Under the pieces are notes generated by a model. The model searched no databases and was not told the origin of the DNA. It was given only the letters and a program-made list of their open reading frames with translations. A DNA stretch of 33,854 nt, from assembly GCA_027030285.1 (NCBI GenBank), contig JALVFC010000169.1:1-33854 (forward strand). The letters are read 5' to 3'. Below are positions 23,555-33,854 of the stretch, piece by piece (positions within the stretch are counted from its first letter, which is position 1; each line of letters begins with the position of its first letter). The stretch is from Thiotrichaceae bacterium. Lineage in GTDB: Bacteria; Pseudomonadota; Gammaproteobacteria; Thiotrichales; Thiotrichaceae. Position numbers and translations under genes: made by a program.

Positions 23555-23983
23555 ATGGCTATGACAATGCATCTAAACGTAGTAAGTGCAGAAGAAGAAC
23601 TCTTCTCCGGAACGGTAGAAGAAGTCTTCGCACCGGGAACCATGGGTGATCTGGGTATCATCCCCCGGCACGCGCAACTCGTTACCACGTTAAAACCAGG
23701 CGAGCTACGCTACGTCGCAGACGGTCATATGGCAGCTCTGTTTGTATCAGGCGGCATTATGGAGGTACAGCCTCATGTCGTTACGGTGCTTGCAGATACC
23801 GCCATAAGAGCTGATGATCTGGATGAAAAAGCCGCTACAGAGGCAAAGGAAAGAGCAGAAGCAGCGCTGGAAGGAAAAGATCCTGAAGATCTTGACTACG
23901 AAGCGTTACAAGCTGAGCTTGAAGCAGCCAAGGCGCAGATCCAGATGATACACAACATAGGAAAGACACTGGGAAGACACTAA
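23555..23983 (+). CDS. atpC: F0F1 ATP synthase subunit epsilon
   Basis: 142 aa with an epsilon-like N-terminal beta domain (LNVVSAEEELFSG) and a helical A/E-rich C-terminus. Confidence 0.92.
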   Translation: MAMTMHLNVVSAEEELFSGTVEEVFAPGTMGDLGIIPRHAQLVTTLKPGELRYVADGHMAALFVSGGIMEVQPHVVTVLADTAIRADDLDEKAATEAKERAEAALEGKDPEDLDYEALQAELEAAKAQIQMIHNIGKTLGRH

Positions 23984-24012
23984 ACAAAGTTTATTTCTGA
24001 TGTTTTGTCTGA

Positions 24013-24041
24013 GGGCAGCCAATTGGCTGCCCTTTTGTTTT
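24013..24041 (+). terminator. Rho-independent terminator of the atp operon
   Basis: Stem gggcagcc / ggctgccc (8 bp) with loop aatt, followed by ttttgtttt. Confidence 0.85.
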
Positions 24042-24087
24042 ACAATGTATTACTGTTTAGCAGAGTGTTGATATACCAAGGTCGCCC

Positions 24088-24684
24088 ATGAGTAACAAAA
24101 ATGACAAATCCATTTGGGAACAACGTTATCAAGAAGGCACAACAGGCTGGGATCGTGGCAAGGCAAGCCCAAATTTATCTACCTGGCTGGAGCAGGGCGA
24201 CCTGCAACCCTGCCGGATACTCATCCCCGGTTGTGGCAATGGCTATGAAATACTGGAACTGGCAAGCCGTGGATTCGAAGTCGTTGCAGTAGATATTGCA
24301 GCTTCTCCCATTCGCAATGCAAAAAAGATGCTCCAGGCAAACCACCTGCAAGCTGAACTCATAGAAAGTGACCTGTTTGCCCTGGATTTTCGCAATACCC
24401 CTTTTGATGCAATTTACGAGCAAACATGCCTTTGTGCACTTGAGCCCACAGACTGGCAGGCTTACGAACAGTGGCTCTATGACTCATTGAAAGAAAAAGG
24501 AAAACTTTACGCACATTTTCTGCAGAATGGCAGAGAAGGCGGGCCTCCTTATCATTGCGATATGACAGCCATGAAAGACCTATTCGACAAAACCCGCTGG
24601 ACATGGGAAAAGGCACTCAAACCAACCCCCATGAGTACATTAACCAATGCACAGGAAAGCCCCTTTTTGCTAATAAGACAATAA
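24088..24684 (+). CDS. SAM-dependent methyltransferase, thiopurine/halide-thiol methyltransferase (TPMT) family
   Basis: 198 aa. N-terminal W-x2-RY-x-EG-x2-GWD and the SAM motif ILIPGCGNGYE...G..VVAVDI fit the TPMT-family pattern as I remember it. Confidence 0.65.
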   Translation: MSNKNDKSIWEQRYQEGTTGWDRGKASPNLSTWLEQGDLQPCRILIPGCGNGYEILELASRGFEVVAVDIAASPIRNAKKMLQANHLQAELIESDLFALDFRNTPFDAIYEQTCLCALEPTDWQAYEQWLYDSLKEKGKLYAHFLQNGREGGPPYHCDMTAMKDLFDKTRWTWEKALKPTPMSTLTNAQESPFLLIRQ

Positions 24685-24698
24685 CCGTATAAAAAGCT

Positions 24699-26822
24699 AT
24701 GTCTCACTTCAAAGCCCCAGGCAACCCGCAGCCACCGCAGGCTGAAAAACACCCACACCAACAGGAACATCATGGTTTCAAGACCATAGACAACTACCAC
24801 TGGCTACGCGCAGACAACTGGCAACAAGCCATGCGTGAACCAGATAAACTGCCCACAGCCATCAAAAACTACCTGCAAGCAGAAAATGACTATTTCAAAG
24901 CCTGCATGAAAGATACCGAAACGCTACAAAAACAGCTTATTGCAGAAATGCGCGCCCGCATCAAGGAAGACGACACCAGCGTACCAGAAAAACACGGCGA
25001 CTATGCCTACCAAACCCGCTATACAGAAGGTGCAGAGCACCCCGTTTATATCCGCACAGCCAGAGAAGCAGGCGATGATGCAGACGAAGAAGTCTTACTG
25101 GATGTCAATGAAGAAGCACAACACGAAGACTATTTCGAACTGGGGCAAGTTACCGTAAGCCCACAACATAACATGCTGGCATGGAGTTCTGACACCAATG
25201 GCGCAGAATATTTCACTCTGAAAATACGCGACCTCGACACGGGGGATGACCTGCCATACGTCATCAACGATGTCGGCTCAGTGGCATGGATCAACGAATC
25301 CAGCTTGCTGTATACCAAAGTGGACAAGCACCACCGACCCAATAAAGTCTATCGTCACCAACTGGCAAACGATGCTGAAGATGAACTCATCATGGAAGAA
25401 ACGGACACCCGTTTTTATATGGCAGTCGGCCGCTTACTAAGCGGAGAATATGTCGCCATCCGGATAGCCATGAATGATCAGAATGAAACCTGGGTACTGC
25501 CAACCCAGCAGCCCGATGCGACACCACAACTGATACAAGCCCGCCAGGAAGGACTGGAATACGATATCGAGCAACAAGGCGAGCAATTTATCATACTTAC
25601 CAACGCCGATGGTGCTGAAGACTTTAAAATCGTCACCGCACCCGTAGCAGCCCCACAAAAAGCCAACTGGAAAGACATAGTCCCACATCAACAAGGGCGG
25701 ATGATTATCGACCTCGAAGTGTATCAGGACTGGCTCATCTGGATGGAAAGAGAAAATGCCCTGCCAGCCATAAAAATCCGTCATATCAACGACAAACCCG
25801 GCAATGAAAAAAGCATCCAGTTTACCGAAGAAGCCTACTCACTGGGCATCCATCCCTCACGGGAATACCACAGCAACAGCCTGCGTTTCAGCTACTCATC
25901 ACCAACCACCCCAACCCAGATTTATGACTACGATCTGCAAAATGACCAGCGCGAATTACGCAAGCAAACCGAAATACCATCTGGTCATAACCCACACGAC
26001 TACATAACACGACGACTAACCGCCATCAGCCACGATGGTGCAGAAGTCCCCATAACCATATTGTACCACCAGTCAACCCCAATAGACGGCACAGCACCCT
26101 GCCTGCTCTACGGCTACGGCTCCTATGGCTCATCCATCCCTGCCGCATTCTCCAGCAACCGACTATCACTGGTAGACCGAGGCTTTATCTACGCCATCGC
26201 GCACGTCAGAGGCGGACAGGAAAAAGGTCGGGCCTGGTATGAAGCAGCCAAAAAAGCAGGCAAACCCAATACCTTCAACGACTTTATCGCCGTAGCAGAA
26301 CACCTCATACAAAACAACTACACACAGCCAGACAAAATAGTCTGCCAAGGTGGTTCAGCCGGAGGTCTACTCATTGGCGCAGTCATAAACATGCGCCCAG
26401 ACCTGTTCGCTGGAGCCATTGCCGATGTCCCCTTTGTAGACATGCTCAACACAATACTCGATGACAGCCTGCCACTCACCCCCGGGGAATGGTCACAATG
26501 GGGCAACCCGATCGAAAGCAAACAAGCCTATGAATGGATCGCCAGCTACTCACCCTACGACAACGTCAGCGCACAGGCATACCCCGCCATACTGGTCACC
26601 GCAGGCGTATCCGACCCCAGAGTCACCTACTGGGAACCCGCCAAATGGGTCGCCAAACTGCGTGAACTAAAAACAGATGACAACATACTACTACTAAAAA
26701 CCAACATGACCTCAGGGCACTTCGGCACCTCAGGACGATTCGCCATGCTGGAAGATGTCGCAGAAGCATATACTTTTGCCCTGCACGCAACAGACAACCA
26801 ACCCAAAGGAGAAAGCGAGTAG
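24699..26822 (+). CDS. ptrB: Oligopeptidase B / protease II (S9A prolyl-oligopeptidase family serine peptidase)
   Basis: 707 aa. N-terminal HG-x4-DNYHWLRAD, nucleophile motif GGSAGGLL, DPRV..WEPAKWVAKLR and a GHFG His region are present. Size and order match oligopeptidase B. Confidence 0.85.
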   Translation: MSHFKAPGNPQPPQAEKHPHQQEHHGFKTIDNYHWLRADNWQQAMREPDKLPTAIKNYLQAENDYFKACMKDTETLQKQLIAEMRARIKEDDTSVPEKHGDYAYQTRYTEGAEHPVYIRTAREAGDDADEEVLLDVNEEAQHEDYFELGQVTVSPQHNMLAWSSDTNGAEYFTLKIRDLDTGDDLPYVINDVGSVAWINESSLLYTKVDKHHRPNKVYRHQLANDAEDELIMEETDTRFYMAVGRLLSGEYVAIRIAMNDQNETWVLPTQQPDATPQLIQARQEGLEYDIEQQGEQFIILTNADGAEDFKIVTAPVAAPQKANWKDIVPHQQGRMIIDLEVYQDWLIWMERENALPAIKIRHINDKPGNEKSIQFTEEAYSLGIHPSREYHSNSLRFSYSSPTTPTQIYDYDLQNDQRELRKQTEIPSGHNPHDYITRRLTAISHDGAEVPITILYHQSTPIDGTAPCLLYGYGSYGSSIPAAFSSNRLSLVDRGFIYAIAHVRGGQEKGRAWYEAAKKAGKPNTFNDFIAVAEHLIQNNYTQPDKIVCQGGSAGGLLIGAVINMRPDLFAGAIADVPFVDMLNTILDDSLPLTPGEWSQWGNPIESKQAYEWIASYSPYDNVSAQAYPAILVTAGVSDPRVTYWEPAKWVAKLRELKTDDNILLLKTNMTSGHFGTSGRFAMLEDVAEAYTFALHATDNQPKGESE

Positions 26823-26906
26823 GTCGGGTAAGGAACGCCACCCGACAAAAAAACAAAATGCCACAGAAACTAATCACCAACTAACCCAAACACAACGGAA
26901 CCAACC

Positions 26907-27311
26907 ATGACACAACAACCAGAAACCATCGCCAAACAATGGCTGGAAGCATCCGCCCAAACAGCAACCAGCAAACAATTTGAAGAACACTTCAACCTGA
27001 TCTCAAAACGGGTACAGGTAAAAGGCGTACCAGGATTCGAAAGCATCAGCTACAACGACTGGGCACGACAATGCGAGCAAGAATTCAAGGAAAATGTACT
27101 CGAGCGAGTCAGCTATGAAGGCTTACTCATCACCGCTTACAATGACAAACAAATCATGTTCAAAACACTAGAATCCGTATTCGCCACAGACGGCACCAAA
27201 AAAACACATGGCGTAGAAATAGTACTGGAAAAAGAACAGGACGGCGTATGGCGAGTCATCCAGGAGCGCATCATGCCCGACGATGAAAGCCGACATGCAG
27301 GGCTACTATAA
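26907..27311 (+). CDS. Small hypothetical protein, probably NTF2-like/SnoaL-like fold
   Basis: 134 aa, soluble. The pattern (A..W...........F..........G.......W.......F......V.Y.......DGVWRV) resembles NTF2-like/DUF4440 proteins. Weak, pattern-only call. Confidence 0.4.
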   Translation: MTQQPETIAKQWLEASAQTATSKQFEEHFNLISKRVQVKGVPGFESISYNDWARQCEQEFKENVLERVSYEGLLITAYNDKQIMFKTLESVFATDGTKKTHGVEIVLEKEQDGVWRVIQERIMPDDESRHAGLL

Positions 27312-27336
27312 AAAGAGAAGAAGGGGTATGATAAAT

Positions 27337-27468
27337 CTACATAAAAAACAACTTATTAGGAGGGATTCTCACTCCATCCGTCCCCTGTTTCAGAATATTC
27401 GCATAGATCTCAGTCGTCTTAACATCCGCATGCCCTAACTGCTACTGAGCCGTACGGATATCCCCCCC
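27337..27468 (-). pseudogene. Remnant of an integron-integrase-like tyrosine recombinase (C-terminal ~40 codons only, with an in-frame TAG)
   Basis: The minus-strand frame reads GGDIRTAQ*QLGHADVKTTEIYANILKQGTDGVRIPPNKLFFM*. This matches recombinase box II with the catalytic Tyr and an IntI-type tail (..HVL..G..GV.SP..). Similarity is lost upstream of a C8 run at 27462-27469. No upstream ORF. Confidence 0.7.
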
Positions 27469-27585
27469 CGCTGTGCGGATCCATCGACAGCTGATGTGAC
27501 CTGAAATGTTATTTAGGGCACTTATGATGGTTAGCTGCCTTCTTTTTTGTGAAAAATTTGGGCAACTATTCGAATAGGGCTCGGT

Positions 27586-27714
27586 ATCTAGGAGGCTGTC
27601 CGAGAGCTAAGTTTTTCAAAATTTCAATCAATATATAGTAGTTTAAGTTATCAAAAGAGCGCTATATGTTGTTTATTTGTTTTTAAAAGCTAGTCATCAG
27701 ACAGCCTCCTAGAT
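27586..27714. repeat. Perfect 15-bp inverted repeat pair flanking a 99-bp AT-rich core
   Basis: atctaggaggctgtc (27586-27600) and gacagcctcctagat (27700-27714) are exact reverse complements. No ORF lies inside and no obvious target-site duplication is present. Confidence 0.6.
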
Positions 27715-27830
27715 AAGGAGTCAGGATTGGAGTTTCCTTTTTAGCTACAAGTTTGAAAAGGTAGAATCATTCAAGTGACTTCTTAAAGAAGTCTGGGCAA
27801 ATCAGCATGACGACTAAAATATAACCAATA

Positions 27831-27898
27831 TTATTTTTGGGCTAAACAGACCAAAAATAACTTGATTCTGGTTCTTTTTGGGTTTACTATCCCAAAAA
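27831..27898. promoter_or_regulatory. Two related palindromic operator-like sites (TTTTTGG-N-CCAAAAA) flanking or overlapping the putative promoter of the HTH gene
   Basis: Site 1 is ttatttttgg-N10-ccaaaaataa (27831-27860). Site 2 is tttttggg-N8-cccaaaaa (27875-27898). Both share the half-site TTTTTGG. Confidence 0.4.
27862..27890 (+). promoter_or_regulatory. Candidate sigma70-type promoter (TTGATT-N17-TACTAT)
   Basis: -35 ttgatt at 27862-27867, a 17-nt spacer, -10 tactat at 27885-27890. The ATG at 27899 lies 9 nt past the -10 with no Shine-Dalgarno, which suggests a leaderless or near-leaderless mRNA. Confidence 0.4.
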
Positions 27899-28717
27899 AT
27901 GAAAACGTCGCTTTCAAATGCTATCTACTCTGTACTAAAGCCGCTTATCTCACTGATGAGTCGGGAGTGTATTGCTTTTGGTGATTTTTCCAGTTTGGCA
28001 AAACAAGCGTTTATTCATGTGACAGAGCAGGAGTTACTAGCTTCGGGGCAAAAAGCAACGACTTCTCGTATCGCCATTATTACAGGGCTGACGCGCAAGG
28101 AAGTAGCAGCACTACGCAAGCAAAAGGTCCCACAACAGGAACAGGATTTCCATCAGAACCGTGCCGTCCGGGTGATTAGTGGCTGGATGGGAGATGATGA
28201 TTTTCGGGATACCCGGGGGGAGCCTAAACCACTCGTCCTGCAAGGTAAAACTGATAGCTTTGAGGCATTGGTTGCCCGGCATAGCGGGGATATTCCCTAT
28301 CGGGCCATGATCAATGAGCTAATACGCATTGGTGCCGCAGAGTTGCTGGAAGATGGCAGGGTTGCACTGGTACGGGCGGTTTATATTCCGTCTGGTACCG
28401 AGTCAGGAAAGTATGACTTGCTGGGCGAGGATGTTGCATTGTTAATTGAGACGATTAAACACAATATCCAGCACCCGGATGACCCGCGCTACCAGCGCAA
28501 GGTTTGTTACGACAAGGTTCCCCGGAAATATGTCGAGGCATTCAAAACGTTTGCCAACAGGGAAAACCAGGCGCTGATTATGAAGCTGAATGCCTGGCTG
28601 GCAGCACATGATATGGACAAGCAGTCAGATATTGAGGGTGAGCATCCCACCCGGCTGGGTGTGGGCGTGTACTATTTTGAAGGTAGCCGCAAGATGGATG
28701 AAACGGATAACGGATAA
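27899..28717 (+). CDS. Hypothetical protein with an N-terminal helix-turn-helix-like segment (possibly the family annotated DUF6502; from memory, unverified)
   Basis: 272 aa from the ATG at 27899. The track's 27878 TTG start is less likely. HTH-like segment TSRIAIITGLTRKEVAALRK. No TM segments. A 6-nt gap separates it from the next gene. Confidence 0.6.
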   Translation: MKTSLSNAIYSVLKPLISLMSRECIAFGDFSSLAKQAFIHVTEQELLASGQKATTSRIAIITGLTRKEVAALRKQKVPQQEQDFHQNRAVRVISGWMGDDDFRDTRGEPKPLVLQGKTDSFEALVARHSGDIPYRAMINELIRIGAAELLEDGRVALVRAVYIPSGTESGKYDLLGEDVALLIETIKHNIQHPDDPRYQRKVCYDKVPRKYVEAFKTFANRENQALIMKLNAWLAAHDMDKQSDIEGEHPTRLGVGVYYFEGSRKMDETDNG

Positions 28718-28723
28718 GGAAAC

Positions 28724-29980
28724 ATGAAGAAATACCTGAACAAGCAAATCATTCTGGTTGCGGCTGCACTACAGCTTATTGTGTTGCTGCTTACTGTACT
28801 GCTGCTGTTATCCGCCTGTAACAATTCCAGTGTTACCGTGGCTAATGGGGGTGTTACTGGAACAGGCATCACTATGGGGCGTATTACCAATTTTGGCAGC
28901 GTATTCGTGAACGGTGTGCGTTTTGATGTGGATGGTGCCGAGTTTTTGCGGAACGATCAGCCCGCCACACAGGGACAAGCTGATTTTAGTGTGGGTGAGT
29001 TTGTTGTCATTAAAGGCAGTATCGGAGCGGATAGCAGTGAAGGTGTTGCCATACAGGTGGCTTATAGCGATGCACTGAATGGTGAGATCACACGCGCCAG
29101 TACCGATGGACAGTCCCTGGAAGTATTAGGGCAACTGGTACATACCGATGCCCTAACCGTGTTTCATGGCTTTACGGATCTCACGGAGCTGGATGCCGGG
29201 AATCTGCTTGAAGTATCAGGGGTATTGGGCACTAATGGACATATTGTCGCCACGCTGATCAAAAAGGGAGCGTTACAGTTTGATTCAGGCGTGTCACGTA
29301 ACCGTCTGCGTGGGCGTATTGCCAATATTGATACAGACCAGCAACAGTTTGAGCTGGGTGGCTTGCTTATCGACTATGCGAGTGCGGATCTGCTGAATTA
29401 TGAAGGCCATGAAATTCATAATGACCAGTATATTGAGGTTGCTAGTGATACGGCTGTTACAAACTACCAACTCACCGCCTCTACAGTCAAATTCATTAAC
29501 GAAACACATGATTTATCAGATCATCACTCTGCTAATATTGAAGGGTTGGTTAACCAATTTACCTCAATCAGTAATTTTCAGGTCAATGGCTTGCTAGTGA
29601 CCACGACACCCTCAACACGCTATCAAAATGGTAACGTCAACCGTATTACGGAAAATGCCTATCTCAGGCTGACTGGCACCATCCATGAATCGGGGGTGCT
29701 GGTTGCGGACAGGATCACTTTCCAAGTCCCGCAGAATGTGATTGAGCAAGAAGGTATGGTGCAATCGGTTGATCTGGAGAACAGCGAAGTTCGCATTTTA
29801 AACCGTACGATTGTGGTTAATACATCCACACTGATGATTGATGAAAACAACCATAGTGCACTACCCTTTACTCTGGCTGACTTGCACTCCGGAGATAGGA
29901 TAAAGGTCAGCGGTATTGCCCTGAACGACGGCAAACTACTGGCTTATCGACTGGAGAAAAAAGTTTTGCACCATAACTGA
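28724..29980 (+). CDS. Lipoprotein built from five tandem ~60-65-aa beta-domain repeats (DUF5666-like pattern)
   Basis: Signal peptide with lipobox LLSAC. The five modules start GRITNFGSVFVNGVRF, GEITRASTDGQSLEVLG, GRIANIDTDQQQFELGG, GLVNQFTSISNFQVNG and GMVQSVDLENSEVRILN. Each is followed by L..G..[VL][EK]V.G. Confidence 0.7.
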   Translation: MKKYLNKQIILVAAALQLIVLLLTVLLLLSACNNSSVTVANGGVTGTGITMGRITNFGSVFVNGVRFDVDGAEFLRNDQPATQGQADFSVGEFVVIKGSIGADSSEGVAIQVAYSDALNGEITRASTDGQSLEVLGQLVHTDALTVFHGFTDLTELDAGNLLEVSGVLGTNGHIVATLIKKGALQFDSGVSRNRLRGRIANIDTDQQQFELGGLLIDYASADLLNYEGHEIHNDQYIEVASDTAVTNYQLTASTVKFINETHDLSDHHSANIEGLVNQFTSISNFQVNGLLVTTTPSTRYQNGNVNRITENAYLRLTGTIHESGVLVADRITFQVPQNVIEQEGMVQSVDLENSEVRILNRTIVVNTSTLMIDENNHSALPFTLADLHSGDRIKVSGIALNDGKLLAYRLEKKVLHHN

Positions 29981-30022
29981 CTTCAATACAGGGCGTAGAT
30001 TTAGGGGCTTTAGGGGCTGAAG

Positions 30023-30081
30023 TGACCCGATGCGGCAACATCGGGTCAGCAAACTGCTTACCGGACAGGTAAACAACTTGG
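30023..30081 (+). repeat. Intergenic hairpin-plus-box motif, copy 1
   Basis: 10-bp stem tgacccgatg / catcgggtca with loop cggcaa (30023-30048). After a 20-nt spacer comes the box caggtaaacaacttgg (30066-30081). Confidence 0.6.
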
Positions 30082-30214
30082 CATGTGCAGTATAACACTT
30101 TTTCAATCCTTTAAATGAGATCATTAACCGGCGTTATAACAGGAGGTACACATACAGACACAGATCAGATACAGATAATTATACATGAACAGGGTACACA
30201 CCCGAATAGAAAAC

Positions 30215-30250
30215 CCCGGTGCGGCAACATCGGGCAGATAAACAATTTGG
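30215..30250 (+). repeat. Intergenic hairpin-plus-box motif, copy 2 (just upstream of the propeller gene RBS)
   Basis: Stem cccggtg / catcggg (one G-U pair) with the same loop cggcaa. tgcggcaacatcggg (30220-30234) is 15/15 identical to 30031-30045. The box cagataaacaatttgg (30235-30250) is 14/16 identical to copy 1. Confidence 0.6.
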
Positions 30251-30270
30251 TAATTTTTAGGAAACAAATC

Positions 30271-31599
30271 ATGACATTGAATACATTACTCAAGTCTCTG
30301 ACGCTGGCAGGGATATTGGCAACACTGACCGCTTGTGGCGGTTCATCCAGCAATACATCGACACCCACCGGGAAGCTAACCACCTTTTACGGTGATATCA
30401 CAAACCAGCGTATTGTTGGTATTGATGTGGAAAGCATGACACTGACCAGTGACACCCCCACGAATGGCCTAAAGCCATATACAGTAGGCCGGGCAGATGG
30501 TCGCAATGGTACGCTTAACAAGCTATACGGGGTGACTCGCAATTCACCCTGGCTGGAAATCATTGATATGACCACGCGCGAAATTACTGGCACTATCCAA
30601 CTGCAACATACACCGCGTTCCTGCGCCTATAATGAAATTCTGGGGTTGCAACTGGTGAGTGGTGTGGATAAACCCATGGCTTCCCTGATTGATCCACAAA
30701 CTGATGAAGTGGTTGCCACAGTGGGTAGAAACACACTGGTTACACCGACAGATTTCGGTGGTTCTAATGCAACCGGACACCCTGTCTGGCTGACCGCTGA
30801 TATCTTCGCCATACTGGATCGGGAAGTTCGCAAGATAGATTTGTACAGGGTATCTCAGGTTAATGGTGTCTGGGAGGCTAACTTCCTCAGTTCACTGGAT
30901 ACGCCAACCTCTGCTCATCACTTTATTGGTAAAGGCTTTGATGGTATGGATACCGGTATTTCACTGACAGACACGCCAACAGATACATTCTATGTGGTAG
31001 CAGAAGGCTCCCCTGCCGACAATATTCCGCCTGCTATTCTGGAGTTAAAACTGGCCAATGATCAACTGACCATCAACCGTTCTGTCAGTTTTGATCATGC
31101 TGCTACCCAGGCAGCTCACGATGATCCTAATTTTGATCCAGCCGCAGAAACAGATGTAGCGACAGGTGGGCATCATGCCACCCTTCATCCCAATGGCAGG
31201 GACATATATGTAGGATCCAGAATAGGTGAAATGTTAATTGTAAATACCCAAACCATGCAAATTGCCCATGCCATACCAACAGGGGAAGGTAGTGGCCATA
31301 CAACCTTTGTGCCGCAACGTAATCTGGCGATTGTTACTAATCATAATGCACCGTTTATTTCGGTTATTAACACGACAACAGGGCACAAGATTAAAGATAT
31401 AACTATCAGTGGTCCTTCCATGAATAATGTCATCATGCAATCACATACCAGTTTCACCGATGCCAATGGTGACTTCTTTTATGCCTTTGCTTCAAACAAT
31501 GGCATCTTTTACGAGGTGGATCTGTCGACGTTGAGTGTATCTCGTACTCTGGATACGGGAGGTACTCCGGTACAGGGCTGCTTTACTTACTTGCAATAA
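30271..31599 (+). CDS. Beta-propeller lipoprotein (YVTN / cd1-like repeat pattern)
   Basis: 442 aa from the ATG at 30271, with Shine-Dalgarno aggaaa 7 nt upstream. Signal peptide plus lipobox LTAC-GGSSS. Repeated hP.G..iYV......l.Vi...T...i..I strands, e.g. LHPNGRDIYVGSRIGEMLIVNTQTMQIAHAIP. The 52-codon upstream extension in the track has no support. Confidence 0.7.
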   Translation: MTLNTLLKSLTLAGILATLTACGGSSSNTSTPTGKLTTFYGDITNQRIVGIDVESMTLTSDTPTNGLKPYTVGRADGRNGTLNKLYGVTRNSPWLEIIDMTTREITGTIQLQHTPRSCAYNEILGLQLVSGVDKPMASLIDPQTDEVVATVGRNTLVTPTDFGGSNATGHPVWLTADIFAILDREVRKIDLYRVSQVNGVWEANFLSSLDTPTSAHHFIGKGFDGMDTGISLTDTPTDTFYVVAEGSPADNIPPAILELKLANDQLTINRSVSFDHAATQAAHDDPNFDPAAETDVATGGHHATLHPNGRDIYVGSRIGEMLIVNTQTMQIAHAIPTGEGSGHTTFVPQRNLAIVTNHNAPFISVINTTTGHKIKDITISGPSMNNVIMQSHTSFTDANGDFFYAFASNNGIFYEVDLSTLSVSRTLDTGGTPVQGCFTYLQ

Positions 31600-31614
31600 G
31601 AAGAAGCTAGGGCT

Positions 31615-31645
31615 GGAACCCTGTCAGCGTATTTGACAGGGTTTC
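31615..31645 (+). terminator. Weak terminator/attenuator hairpin after the propeller gene
   Basis: Stem ggaaccctgtc / gacagggtttc (9 perfect bp, extended by a G-U pair and a G-C pair) with a 9-nt loop. It is followed by only a short T stretch. Confidence 0.35.
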
Positions 31646-31685
31646 AGGTATAAGCCACCGGTAAAGATTGGCGGGTTTATTTTAT

Positions 31686-32012
31686 ATGTTACATAAAATC
31701 GTACTTACACTGCTTCTACTTAACATTTTGCTTTTTCCTGTAGCGAGCCTGAGCCAGCTCCAGTCCTCAGAGGGGCAGGAAGCCGAGAATGGTATCACTA
31801 TTGCACTACATACCCATGTGGTGAGTTCAGATGATGAGTGTTGTGTACTCCAGTGTGTGAACTGTTCTTGTACCTGTACGCAACTGGTTCTCACTCTGGA
31901 TTTTTTTATTCCTGTTATAGCCGCCCTTCAAAACAAGGGCTTTTATCAGAAAAAACAGGCTGCTTTTGTCAGTCTTAATCACCTCCCCGAAGTACCGCCT
32001 CCTCTCATCTAA
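31686..32012 (+). CDS. Small Cys-rich membrane/secreted protein (signal or TM segment, HTH His pair, CCx3Cx2CxCxC cluster, second hydrophobic segment, PPP tail)
   Basis: 108 aa from the ATG at 31686: MLHKIVLTLLLLNILLFPVASLSQ...HTHVVSSDDECCVLQCVNCSCTCTQLVLTLDFFIPVIAAL...LPEVPPPLI. It is a real-looking ORF in an operon-like position, but no family assignment is possible by eye. Confidence 0.5.
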   Translation: MLHKIVLTLLLLNILLFPVASLSQLQSSEGQEAENGITIALHTHVVSSDDECCVLQCVNCSCTCTQLVLTLDFFIPVIAALQNKGFYQKKQAAFVSLNHLPEVPPPLI

Positions 32013-32163
32013 TCATCCTTCTATTTCCGCATTTTGATTGGTCAGTGCCCTATGGGTAAATAGGTAGATAGATTTCACAAGGTGTTATCTGCACTGCGCG
32101 CAAATCAATTCTTAATATTCTTCCGGGACAGGGCAACCCCCCCGGATAAAGGATGAGATCAAT

Positions 32164-32736
32164 ATGGAGCAAATTACAACCAAAGACCCAGGCGTTTTTT
32201 TATCTACGATGCACGTTAAGGCATTGGCTTACGTGACTGTCCGGCTCAAGGATACCGAGTTAGCTCAGGATATAGTGCAAGATACAATGATAGGTTTTGT
32301 CCGCTCAGCACATCACTATGAGAACCGTGCATGGAGGAACCTGTTTTACAAAATTCTGAAACGCAGGATCATTGACTACGTAAGAAAGGAGCAATGGAGA
32401 AAACAGTTACGAGCAGCGTGGATGCCTCCTGACGCTACCGGGTTGGAAGGAGAGTCTGATGAAGGTGAGAGCCACTCCTGTAATCCAGACAGTACCGGGA
32501 AAAGTATTTCGTATGATACTGCTCAGTCTTATTTGAATGTCATTGAAATGATAGAGCAACTCGACGTTATTTTGTTAGCACTGCCTGAACGACAGCAAGA
32601 GGCTTATGAGCTTCGTAACTTGCAAGGTTATTCAATAAAAGAAGTCGCCAGGATGATGAGTTGTTCAGAAAGTAGTGTAAAGTCACTTACCTATAGGGCA
32701 TTGAAAGCTCTGCGGAAGCAGTTGGGCTGTCCATAA
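32164..32736 (+). CDS. ECF-type RNA polymerase sigma-70 family factor
   Basis: 190 aa. Region 2 ELAQDIVQDTMIGFVR...W..LFYKILKRRIIDYVRKE. Region 4 HTH LPERQQEAYELRNLQGYSIKEVARMMSCSESSVKSLTYRALKALRKQL. Confidence 0.85.
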   Translation: MEQITTKDPGVFLSTMHVKALAYVTVRLKDTELAQDIVQDTMIGFVRSAHHYENRAWRNLFYKILKRRIIDYVRKEQWRKQLRAAWMPPDATGLEGESDEGESHSCNPDSTGKSISYDTAQSYLNVIEMIEQLDVILLALPERQQEAYELRNLQGYSIKEVARMMSCSESSVKSLTYRALKALRKQLGCP

Positions 32737-33010
32737 CATACAAAGAAGCCTAAAAGTGCCGTGTTGGCCTTCCTTCGTCAGTATCAATTAGCTTTGTAGA
32801 GAACGTTAGAATGCCATCTTAACCTTTAAGGTGGTGGGTATGTAATGGTCAGGTTACGTCCTATTCGATTTGGTTTAGGATGAGGCACGAGAGTGTTCAG
32901 TATATAAGTACAAACGAATGTTTTGTATGTATTTGTTGGGCGAAATAAGGGTAAGCTGATGTAGCTTATGTGGATATGTTCTATTTGGATGCCAATTAAA
33001 CATAAGCTCT

Positions 33011-33042
33011 AAAAGAGGCAGGTAGCATGCACTACCTGCCTC
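33011..33042 (-). terminator. Rho-independent terminator of the multicopper oxidase gene
   Basis: The minus strand reads gaggcaggtag-tgcatg-ctacctgcctc (11-bp stem, 6-nt loop) followed by tttt. Confidence 0.75.
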
Positions 33043-33091
33043 CTGGGGCTATTGGTTGACTGGTTGAGTAAACCCAGCGTGATTCATTCCA

Positions 33092-33854
33092 CTATTTGTT
33101 GTTTTCCGTGTTTCCTGAATTGCCGCTATTCATGCCACCTGAAGCGTTCCCACCAACGTTAATGACCGCTGCTCCCGTTGTGACAGCAAACTGTCCCATC
33201 ATACCATCATCTTCATGTTCCAGAAAATGGCAGTGATACATATAACCAGTATTGTCATCCGTGAAATCTGTCATCTTCACAATGAATTTAACCGTATCTC
33301 GCGGTGCCAAGCGAATGGTGTCTTTATAGCCTTTTTCGCTTTGCGTAATATTTGCCGGGCTGCCATTCCTTTCCAGAGGGTAGAAGTGTGTCGCATGAAT
33401 ATGAAAGTTATGCTCCATTCCCATCATATTGACTACTTCCCATACTTCTATGTCATTGACCGGTACGAATTCATCAATACGGTTAATATCCATCAGTTTC
33501 CCATTAATCGCCATATGCATTGCGCCATCTTCACCTCGTGCCATATTAAGCACAAATCTACGGGTTCTAACGGCTGATGCAGGTGAGTATTTTTCCAGTG
33601 TAGTGAGTTGTGCAGGTACTACTGAGGTAATAGAACTGGTTTGGTTAATATTAACCTTCATAATATCCAGGCCAGAGTTTGCGTCTTGCAGGATTACGCT
33701 GTTGCCAAGATCATTCGTGAAGTCAACCACAATTTCTGCTCTCTCACCGGGGCTTAGCACCACAGAAGAAAGTGTTACTGGTGTCTCAAGGAAAGAGTTG
33801 TCCGTTGCTATCTGCTGGAAACTTCTGCTATCAGAAAATTGTACCTTGTAAACA
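33092..33854 (-). CDS. Multicopper oxidase, CueO-like, C-terminal part (5' end outside the window)
   Basis: C-terminal copper-ligand motif YMYHCHFLEHEDDGMMGQF, plus MGMEHNFHIHATHF. The reading frame stays open from 33763 to the window edge (VYKVQFSDSRSFQQIATDNSFLETPVTLSS-VVLSPGERAEIVVDF), so the track's 33763 start is internal. Confidence 0.85.
   Translation of the reverse strand, partial: VYKVQFSDSRSFQQIATDNSFLETPVTLSSVVLSPGERAEIVVDFTNDLGNSVILQDANSGLDIMKVNINQTSSITSVVPAQLTTLEKYSPASAVRTRRFVLNMARGEDGAMHMAINGKLMDINRIDEFVPVNDIEVWEVVNMMGMEHNFHIHATHFYPLERNGSPANITQSEKGYKDTIRLAPRDTVKFIVKMTDFTDDNTGYMYHCHFLEHEDDGMMGQFAVTTGAAVINVGGNASGGMNSGNSGNTENNK

Follow-up and report, generated by a model that had tools for sequence, protein, structure and literature searches.

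The last stretch of an integron integrase gene (intI) is preserved on the minus strand of the 33,854-nt Thiotrichaceae DNA analysed here (the window). It is very probably a non-functional relic, made up of the final ~41 codons and the stop codon of the gene, the rest of which would have been lost by deletion or recombination. The relic records an intI gene, native or imported, that once stood beside an NTF2-like gene in an uncultured vent Thiotrichaceae and is now almost erased.

Translation of the minus strand from 27468 to 27337 gives GGDIRTAQ*QLGHADVKTTEIYANILKQGTDGVRIPPNKLFFM*. This is exactly the peptide that had been read in a first-pass annotation of the same DNA, and the positions that the annotation had given to an in-frame TAG and to a C8 run (27462-27469) were also reproduced on retranslation. 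The codons of the remnant correspond to positions 278-318 of the 321 in an IntI profile hidden Markov model (HMM) and are followed by three extra codons, with the stop (27337-27339) at its native position. Box II of the tyrosine recombinases with the catalytic Tyr (LGHxxxxTTxxY) is present as LGHADVKTTEIY and is matched by PF00589, TIGR02249 and the Xer models. Moreover, the fragment carries the extension by which IntI-type tails are recognised after the Tyr (G..GV..P..L). At the position of the TAG, the residue in 80 related tails is E (62%), Q (29%) or S, and TAG is one substitution away from GAG or CAG. No in-frame start codon follows the TAG in the translation. Furthermore, the ORF list contains no minus-strand ORF of >=40 aa covering or preceding the remnant, in agreement with the earlier remark that the missing N-terminal part has no ORF; ~277 N-terminal codons are gone and ~41 codons, 13% of the gene, are left. 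The features of the locus are collected in Table 1.

Table 1. Features at and around the intI remnant, in window coordinates.
Feature	Position	Strand	Basis
NTF2-like (SnoaL-type) gene	26907..27311	plus	ORF, homologues, codon bias, synteny
intI 3'-terminal remnant	27337..27474	minus	translation, profile matches, BLAST, lineage HMM
In-frame TAG	27442..27444	minus	translation and alignment of 80 related tails
Truncation junction: C8/G8 homopolymer and first homologous codon	27462..27475	none	profile searches, GC skew
110-nt spacer between remnant and palindrome	27470..27579	none	no similarity to intI or retrieved loci
141-nt imperfect palindrome, MITE-like	27580..27720	none	repeat search, fold, copies

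In all likelihood the remnant is an IntI-type tail by ancestry. For the library comparisons, 43 residues were used and the stop codon was replaced by E. The integron integrase model of NCBIfam, TIGR02249, matched with 46.3 bits (E 3.6e-12) over profile positions 276-313 of 315, and the IntI1 equivalog NF011946 with 30.1 bits over positions 291-330 of 337. The XerC, XerD, XerA and XerS models reached 24.8-26.5 bits and covered only the first 25-28 residues of the fragment, to just past the Tyr, and Pfam PF00589 matched residues 1-27 with 22 bits, under its cut-off of 27.1 bits. Among solved structures, the best match was VchIntIA of V. cholerae (IntI4, PDB 2a3v), aligned over its residues 281-319 of 320 with 40.7 bits and E 1.1e-9; next came XerA (20.4 bits, E 4.5e-3) and XerD (E 0.03). 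The stretch had been described earlier as box II and tail of a tyrosine recombinase of IntI rather than Xer or phage type, with the proviso that a better fit to Xer or phage tails would tell against it. That comparison was run on profiles and on the PDB, IntI scored higher throughout, and the IntI reading stands because no Xer or phage tail matches better.

The same identity emerges from whole-protein and DNA-level relatives. The 34 residues that follow the stop were compared by phmmer with all of 1.84 billion representative proteins, which gave 12 matches, mostly IntI-type tails. The full-length match P0006 (325 aa) scores 442 bits on TIGR02249 and is 66% identical over 41 residues to the translation of 27468-27346. 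When P0006 was compared by tblastn with six frames of the window, the remnant was found with E 2e-12 and the second-best match with E 0.34. A lineage IntI HMM was then built from full-length relatives; searched with filters off against the six frames of 27250-28300, it placed the remnant with 53.3 bits (E 8e-18 for six translated frames) at the HMM positions given above. Additionally, a metagenome scan with the tail alignment yielded 80 loci with tails 57-78% identical, all of which match the full-length IntI P0006. The intI gene aligns end to end with P0006 in 54 of these loci, it is complete by the lineage HMM in at least 51, and attC arrays stand beside it in ~34.

An additional domain specific to IntI and located near patch III was reportedly described by Messier and Roy in 2001. 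The remnant lacks it, as the corresponding portion of the gene has been lost, and the stretch is therefore filed as a remnant with an ancestry read from its tail and not as an IntI gene. Formally, IntI is defined by the insertion near patch III (intI_Cterm profile; Cury 2016, PMC4889954). This missing insertion, along with the presence of box II in all tyrosine recombinases and the sub-threshold PF00589 match to residues 1-27, is what could be said for a tail of a non-integron enzyme (XerC/XerD, XerA or a phage integrase) that is merely IntI-like. Such an origin is nevertheless highly improbable. IntI profiles score ~20 bits above every Xer profile, and only they align past the Tyr through G..GV..P..L, to two positions or fewer from the profile end; the nearest DNA-level relatives, 80 out of 80, match P0006, and the attC arrays of the ~34 loci point the same way.

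The remnant breaks off at the C8 run. It had been stated that similarity disappears upstream of this run, and indeed no frame of 27469-28300 matches an IntI profile, either with NCBIfam models (minus frames of 27469-27900) or with the lineage HMM with all filters off. IntI positions 1-277 were found neither in the six frames of 27250-28300 nor elsewhere in a 43-kb contig that contains the same locus. A gapped BLAST alignment had offered NISGHISCRWIR as a remnant of the HxLR box followed by an 8-residue deletion; it adds ~1 bit without profile support and was rejected. Within the remnant, replacements have occurred where 93-100% of the 80 relatives agree (V7A, T23A, H24N, A/G30T, S35I and L37P), and those from S to I and from L to P fall inside the tail motif, which in IntI reads ..K.G..GV.SPL..L. 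These six replacements, the in-frame TAG and the loss of ~277 codons justify the word 'decayed' that had been applied to the piece, and the replacement pattern is that of relaxed selection on a dead piece. Another remnant with the same V-to-A change, P0004, was considered as a possible relation; it comes from a contig of 538 nt, and its DNA shows no relationship to the remnant.

A probable course of events can be outlined. A deletion or recombination with its breakpoint at ~27469-27475 would have taken away the first ~277 codons and, with them, any attI site and cassettes. The leftover piece would then have drifted without selection, acquiring the in-frame stop and the six replacements at near-invariant positions. 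At present it would encode nothing and recombine nothing, an absence of function inferred from the lack of an ORF and a start codon. The remnant would persist because of its position, 25 nt from where the convergent NTF2-like gene ends, in DNA downstream of the atp operon whose arrangement varies among relatives. The same 25 nt to the NTF2-like stop codon, and the recurrence of comparably short intI tails in other loci, could suggest that the remnant is retained for a present role, as 3' UTR or terminator of the NTF2-like gene, as an antisense RNA or as a small peptide. Such a role is very unlikely, however, as the TAG is followed by no start codon, 27300-27480 holds no terminator-like site, Rfam gives no match, the replacements affect the most conserved residues, and the available copies are all near-identical, too alike to show conservation. 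An Rfam search at gathering thresholds found no match anywhere in the window.

The truncation is a property of the genome and not of one assembly. The stretch 27200-27521, including the junction and ~50 nt beyond it, is identical in L002, a short hydrothermal-vent metagenome contig from another sample and assembler. The right half of the window, remnant region included, is identical in the 43-kb contig L001, which comes from another sample, save for 13 differences over 16.9 kb that all lie within 487 nt of ptrB (24971-25457). As the window and L001 differ at these 13 sites elsewhere, they are separate assemblies; the junction, the TAG and the C8 run are thus agreed upon by three independent assemblies. 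The metagenomic source and the position of the junction at a C8 run might raise the suspicion of a chimera, in which intI reads were wrongly joined at the homopolymer, but the identical junction in L001 and L002 makes this extremely improbable, and a remnant identical in three independent assemblies is not a chimera. As a separate observation, the 13 clustered differences in ptrB resemble a short recombination tract between strains.

Other parts of an integron were sought with models adapted to the lineage. The strict form of a heuristic attC scan found too few true sites and the loose form performed at the level of shuffled sequence; scans of 26.8-33.8 kb by these heuristics were negative, and covariance models were used instead. 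The first model (R1) was built from seven canonical attC sites of related loci, each of which has a 7-bp R box and a 5-bp L box separated by three unpaired nucleotides, then an extrahelical base and four more pairs. As a positive control, R1 recovered 78 attC sites at E <=0.01 in the 80 loci, all of them upstream of intI on the opposite strand, which is the cassette orientation, and frequently in arrays of 5-9. These 78 sites in turn served to build a second model (R2). With filters off, neither R1 nor R2 found an attC site in the window, elsewhere in the 43-kb contig or among the syntenic relatives. Window and contig gave no score above 13.4 bits (E 0.3-0.5), reached by 44 nt within the DUF5666 gene. 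An attI site and a Pc promoter would adjoin the 5' end of intI, which is lost here, and for attI no general model exists. An intact intI ORF of ~320 aa was not encountered either; there are 41 homologous codons with an in-frame TAG and no start codon. With no attC nearby, the locus is neither an In0 element nor a CALIN nor a complete integron.

It had been proposed that the former attI site and cassettes extended to the right of the remnant. The geometry of this proposal holds, but any such array has left no trace, as the validated model finds no attC in the 43-kb contig. The genes to the right encode a DUF6502 protein, a DUF5666 protein, a YVTN-type beta-propeller, a 114-aa ORF and an ECF sigma factor. 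They are oriented as cassettes would be, but there is no attC between them. Additionally, they are large for cassettes and have a host-like codon bias. Similarity to plasmids was not found. Two further observations concern this side of the window. At 27831-27857 and 27872-27898, two operator-like palindromes of the form TTTTTGGG-N8-10-CCCAAAAA occur 41 nt apart. They directly precede the ATG at 27899, taken as the DUF6502 start by the metagenome gene caller, and may be a repressor-binding site. The last ORF (33092-33763, minus strand) encodes the C-terminal portion of a multicopper oxidase (CueO/FtsP-like) and runs on beyond the window. A 223-aa SH3 gene has the same length and a comparable place in the closest relative, but the two are not homologous.

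Comparison with related genomes places the remnant in a variable setting. The window carries, in order, nuoE-N, a uvrD-like gene, the atp operon, TPMT, ptrB, the NTF2-like gene, the remnant and the cluster from DUF6502 to the sigma factor. The NTF2-like gene is convergent with the remnant, their stop codons being 25 nt apart. It has an unusual codon bias rich in C3 and A3, as in ptrB, and its homologues occur in Cocleimonas, Thiothrix and Granulosicoccus. The assignment to Thiotrichaceae draws on these homologues and on AtpD, which falls in one cluster (>=90%) with a protein named after a Thiotrichaceae MAG. The closest relative, L174 (GCA_027046085.1), shows 88% nucleotide identity from uvrD to window position 26779, and homology ends at ~26795, in the last codons of ptrB, the product of which (P0133) is 89% identical. 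After ptrB, L174 continues with eptA, PAP2 and a rhomboid gene, and neither an NTF2-like gene nor intI nor DUF6502 is found at this locus. L184, a more distant metagenome-assembled genome (MAG), is syntenic only to atpC (window ~23967-23970), and thereafter carries unrelated genes (SGNH, methyltransferase, ArsR and a two-component system) without TPMT-ptrB. In the regions compared (window 23967-33854, L174:9287-22106 and L184:11829-21380), the DNA downstream of the atp operon thus differs in all three related Thiotrichaceae genomes and is a rearrangement hotspot.

The remnant had been thought to mark the boundary of an accessory region. This position cannot be maintained, as synteny ends earlier, at atpC (~23970) relative to L184 or at the end of ptrB (~26795) relative to L174. 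Because the variable region starts right after atpC, the remnant is located inside it and not at its edge, and ptrB and above all the NTF2-like gene also belong to the variable part. The suggested look at syntenic relatives for an intact intI or a cassette array disclosed none, and neither an intact intI nor an empty site was met at this locus among the relatives compared. Homologues of the NTF2-like gene (68-71% identity) and of ptrB (68-70%) lie in loci without conserved synteny and have no intI nearby. A ptrB scan of genome contigs gave alphaproteobacterial best matches that are 65% identical and without synteny. Beyond close relatives, the best named homologues of ptrB are found in MAGs of Thiotrichaceae and Methylococcales (68-69%), followed by the alphaproteobacterial Yoonia (~65%).

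Base composition provides a further view of the junction. The GC3 skew is -0.19 in TPMT, -0.49 in ptrB and -0.45 in the NTF2-like gene, and the AT3 skew is +0.13, +0.41 and +0.77, respectively; these third-position skews are opposite in sign to those of all other window genes. The ptrB gene of L174 shows the same bias as that of the window. In its own sense the remnant has a GC3 skew of +0.75 and an AT3 skew of -0.6 over 44 codons, which equals the same richness of the plus strand in C and A. From TPMT through ptrB and the NTF2-like gene to the stump (24088-27474), the plus strand therefore has more C than G and more A than T at third codon positions, and the cumulative GC skew of the region has its maximum at 24298 and its minimum exactly at 27469. 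This pattern fits a junction, at the truncation point, of two DNAs with different histories, although the remnant is short and the C8 run contributes to the minimum.

Accordingly composed DNA could have reached the locus as one piece. The remnant would then have arrived already truncated, as the ragged end of an imported or recombined block of TPMT, ptrB, the NTF2-like gene and intI', with the right junction at 27469. This origin has a reasonable chance of being correct, somewhat short of an even one. The reversed skews of the three genes, the similar C and A richness of the remnant, the skew extremes at 24298 and 27469 and the lack of TPMT-ptrB after atpC in L184 all argue for it. On the other hand, L174 has TPMT-ptrB at 88% nucleotide identity without the NTF2-like gene and the remnant, so the block is not a single recent unit. 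Moreover, the remnant amounts to only 44 codons, it is the C8 run that draws the minimum of the skew to 27469, and the homologue loci compared include no donor with TPMT-ptrB-NTF2-intI. Two origins are compatible with the composition, namely erosion in situ of an integron that came with the block or stood beside it, and import of an end that was already broken; the remnant is an intI relic under both. An inversion of 24.3-27.47 kb was considered as an explanation of both skew and truncation. It is unparsimonious and was rejected because the 5' half of intI would have to adjoin atpC, and does not.

A palindromic repeat lies to the right of the spacer that follows the remnant. It has perfect outer arms of 16 nt, TATCTAGGAGGCTGTC and GACAGCCTCCTAGATA, within 59-nt arms that are 71% complementary, and its DNA fold has -22.5 kcal/mol with a z-score of -4.8. 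Copies of 167 nt with termini CTAGGAGGCTGTCCGAGA.CTAAG ... TCGGACAGCCTCCTAG occur at L095:939-1105 and L110:3720-3886, in vent-series metagenomes that are also the source of the closest tails, and a solo arm occurs at L174:19841-19856. The L095 copy abuts and displaces the start of an intact intI, whose only in-frame ATG lies inside the element, whereas the L110 copy is located 37 nt past the stop of an intact intI. Each of the three full copies is therefore no more than 110 nt from an intI gene or stump. As the copies number only three and the data set consists mainly of intI loci, this association is not called significant. The element has the terminal inverted repeats, the non-coding size and the multiple copies of a MITE-like sequence. 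No direct repeat can be made out unambiguously beside any of the three copies, CTAG/TA being part of the palindrome, and no parent IS of the family was identified in these data. The palindrome was also considered as an attC site and rejected, as it has no R''/R' boxes and matches neither R1 nor R2. In Rfam it meets only plant miRNA hairpin models, below threshold. ERIC-like elements and IS5-family-derived MITEs are presumably the systems to compare it with, which we offer as a lead only.

Several disrupted intI genes among the 80 related loci break at similar places. The tail-side breakpoints in L111, L131, L151, L152, L157, L161 and L166 (and in L139, L148, L154 and L156) are at HMM positions 210, 239, 244, 245, 269, 272, 274, 279, 279 and 281, and that of the window remnant is at 278. 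Breakpoints in unrelated loci thus cluster just upstream of the DIRT motif, in small numbers and with Ns at the junction in L111. L161 and L166 share a palindromic insert of 57-65 nt exactly between positions 280 and 281. There is a slim chance that this recurrence, together with the palindromes close to intI, reflects a site near the 3' end of intI that is prone to rearrangement or insertion, or else a small mobile element directed at the flanks of intI, which would help to inactivate integrons in these vent bacteria. Other eroded forms were seen as well. Many of the best matches to the tail among the 1.84 billion representative proteins, P0001, P0004, P0005, P0008 and P0012 (68-76 aa), are short ORFs in which an unrelated or N-terminal IntI piece is joined to the last ~40 IntI residues, and L186 is an intI pseudogene with several deletions. 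Very short stumps of the gene thus seem to be common in metagenomes, although the clustering of the library favours seeing them.

By itself the remnant is of little importance. It flags a rearrangement-prone stretch downstream of the atp operon, and the palindromic repeat and the clustering of breakpoints near DIRT, small as their numbers are, give leads on how sedentary integrons become inactivated. Furthermore, short intI stumps fall below the coverage thresholds of standard integron finders, and integron loss is consequently under-counted.

Among known systems, the closest solved protein is VchIntIA (2a3v), whose residues 281-319 of 320 align without gaps with the remnant, GGDIRTAQ*QLGHADVKTTEIYANILKQGTDGVRIPPNK. 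The remnant differs from VchIntIA in having lost everything before residue 281 and in carrying YAN in place of YTH and IPP in place of SPL. With the chromosome-dimer resolvases XerC, XerD and XerA it shares box II (LGH...TT.IY), but these score ~20 bits lower than IntI and their alignments end 3-6 residues past the Tyr. The neighbouring palindrome resembles MITEs and intergenic palindromic repeats in being a non-coding, imperfect palindrome of 141-167 nt with conserved termini, and in having several intergenic copies in different contigs and a solo arm. For this family neither a target-site duplication nor a parent IS was established, and it counts only three full copies. Pseudogenes of intI were already cited from earlier reports by Cury 2016 (PMC4889954), where pseudogenes were found near 15 of 279 CALINs. 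The pseudogene screen of IntegronFinder described there (Cury 2016, PMC4889954) needs >50% profile coverage and a nearby CALIN, and would not report the present remnant, as its coverage is 13% and no attC is nearby. The intI pseudogenes of chromosomal (sedentary) integrons (PMC4889954) are likewise inactivated chromosomal genes with a stop and a truncation, and the nearest intact relatives of the remnant are environmental IntI genes of chromosomal type with attC arrays. In contrast to the catalogued pseudogenes (PMC4889954), the remnant keeps only 13% of the gene and has no attC near it. Pseudogenes of intI and eroded integrons are already well documented and the remnant is a further, more eroded example. 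Some novelty is to be found only in the clustering of breakpoints upstream of DIRT and in the palindromic repeat by intI genes.
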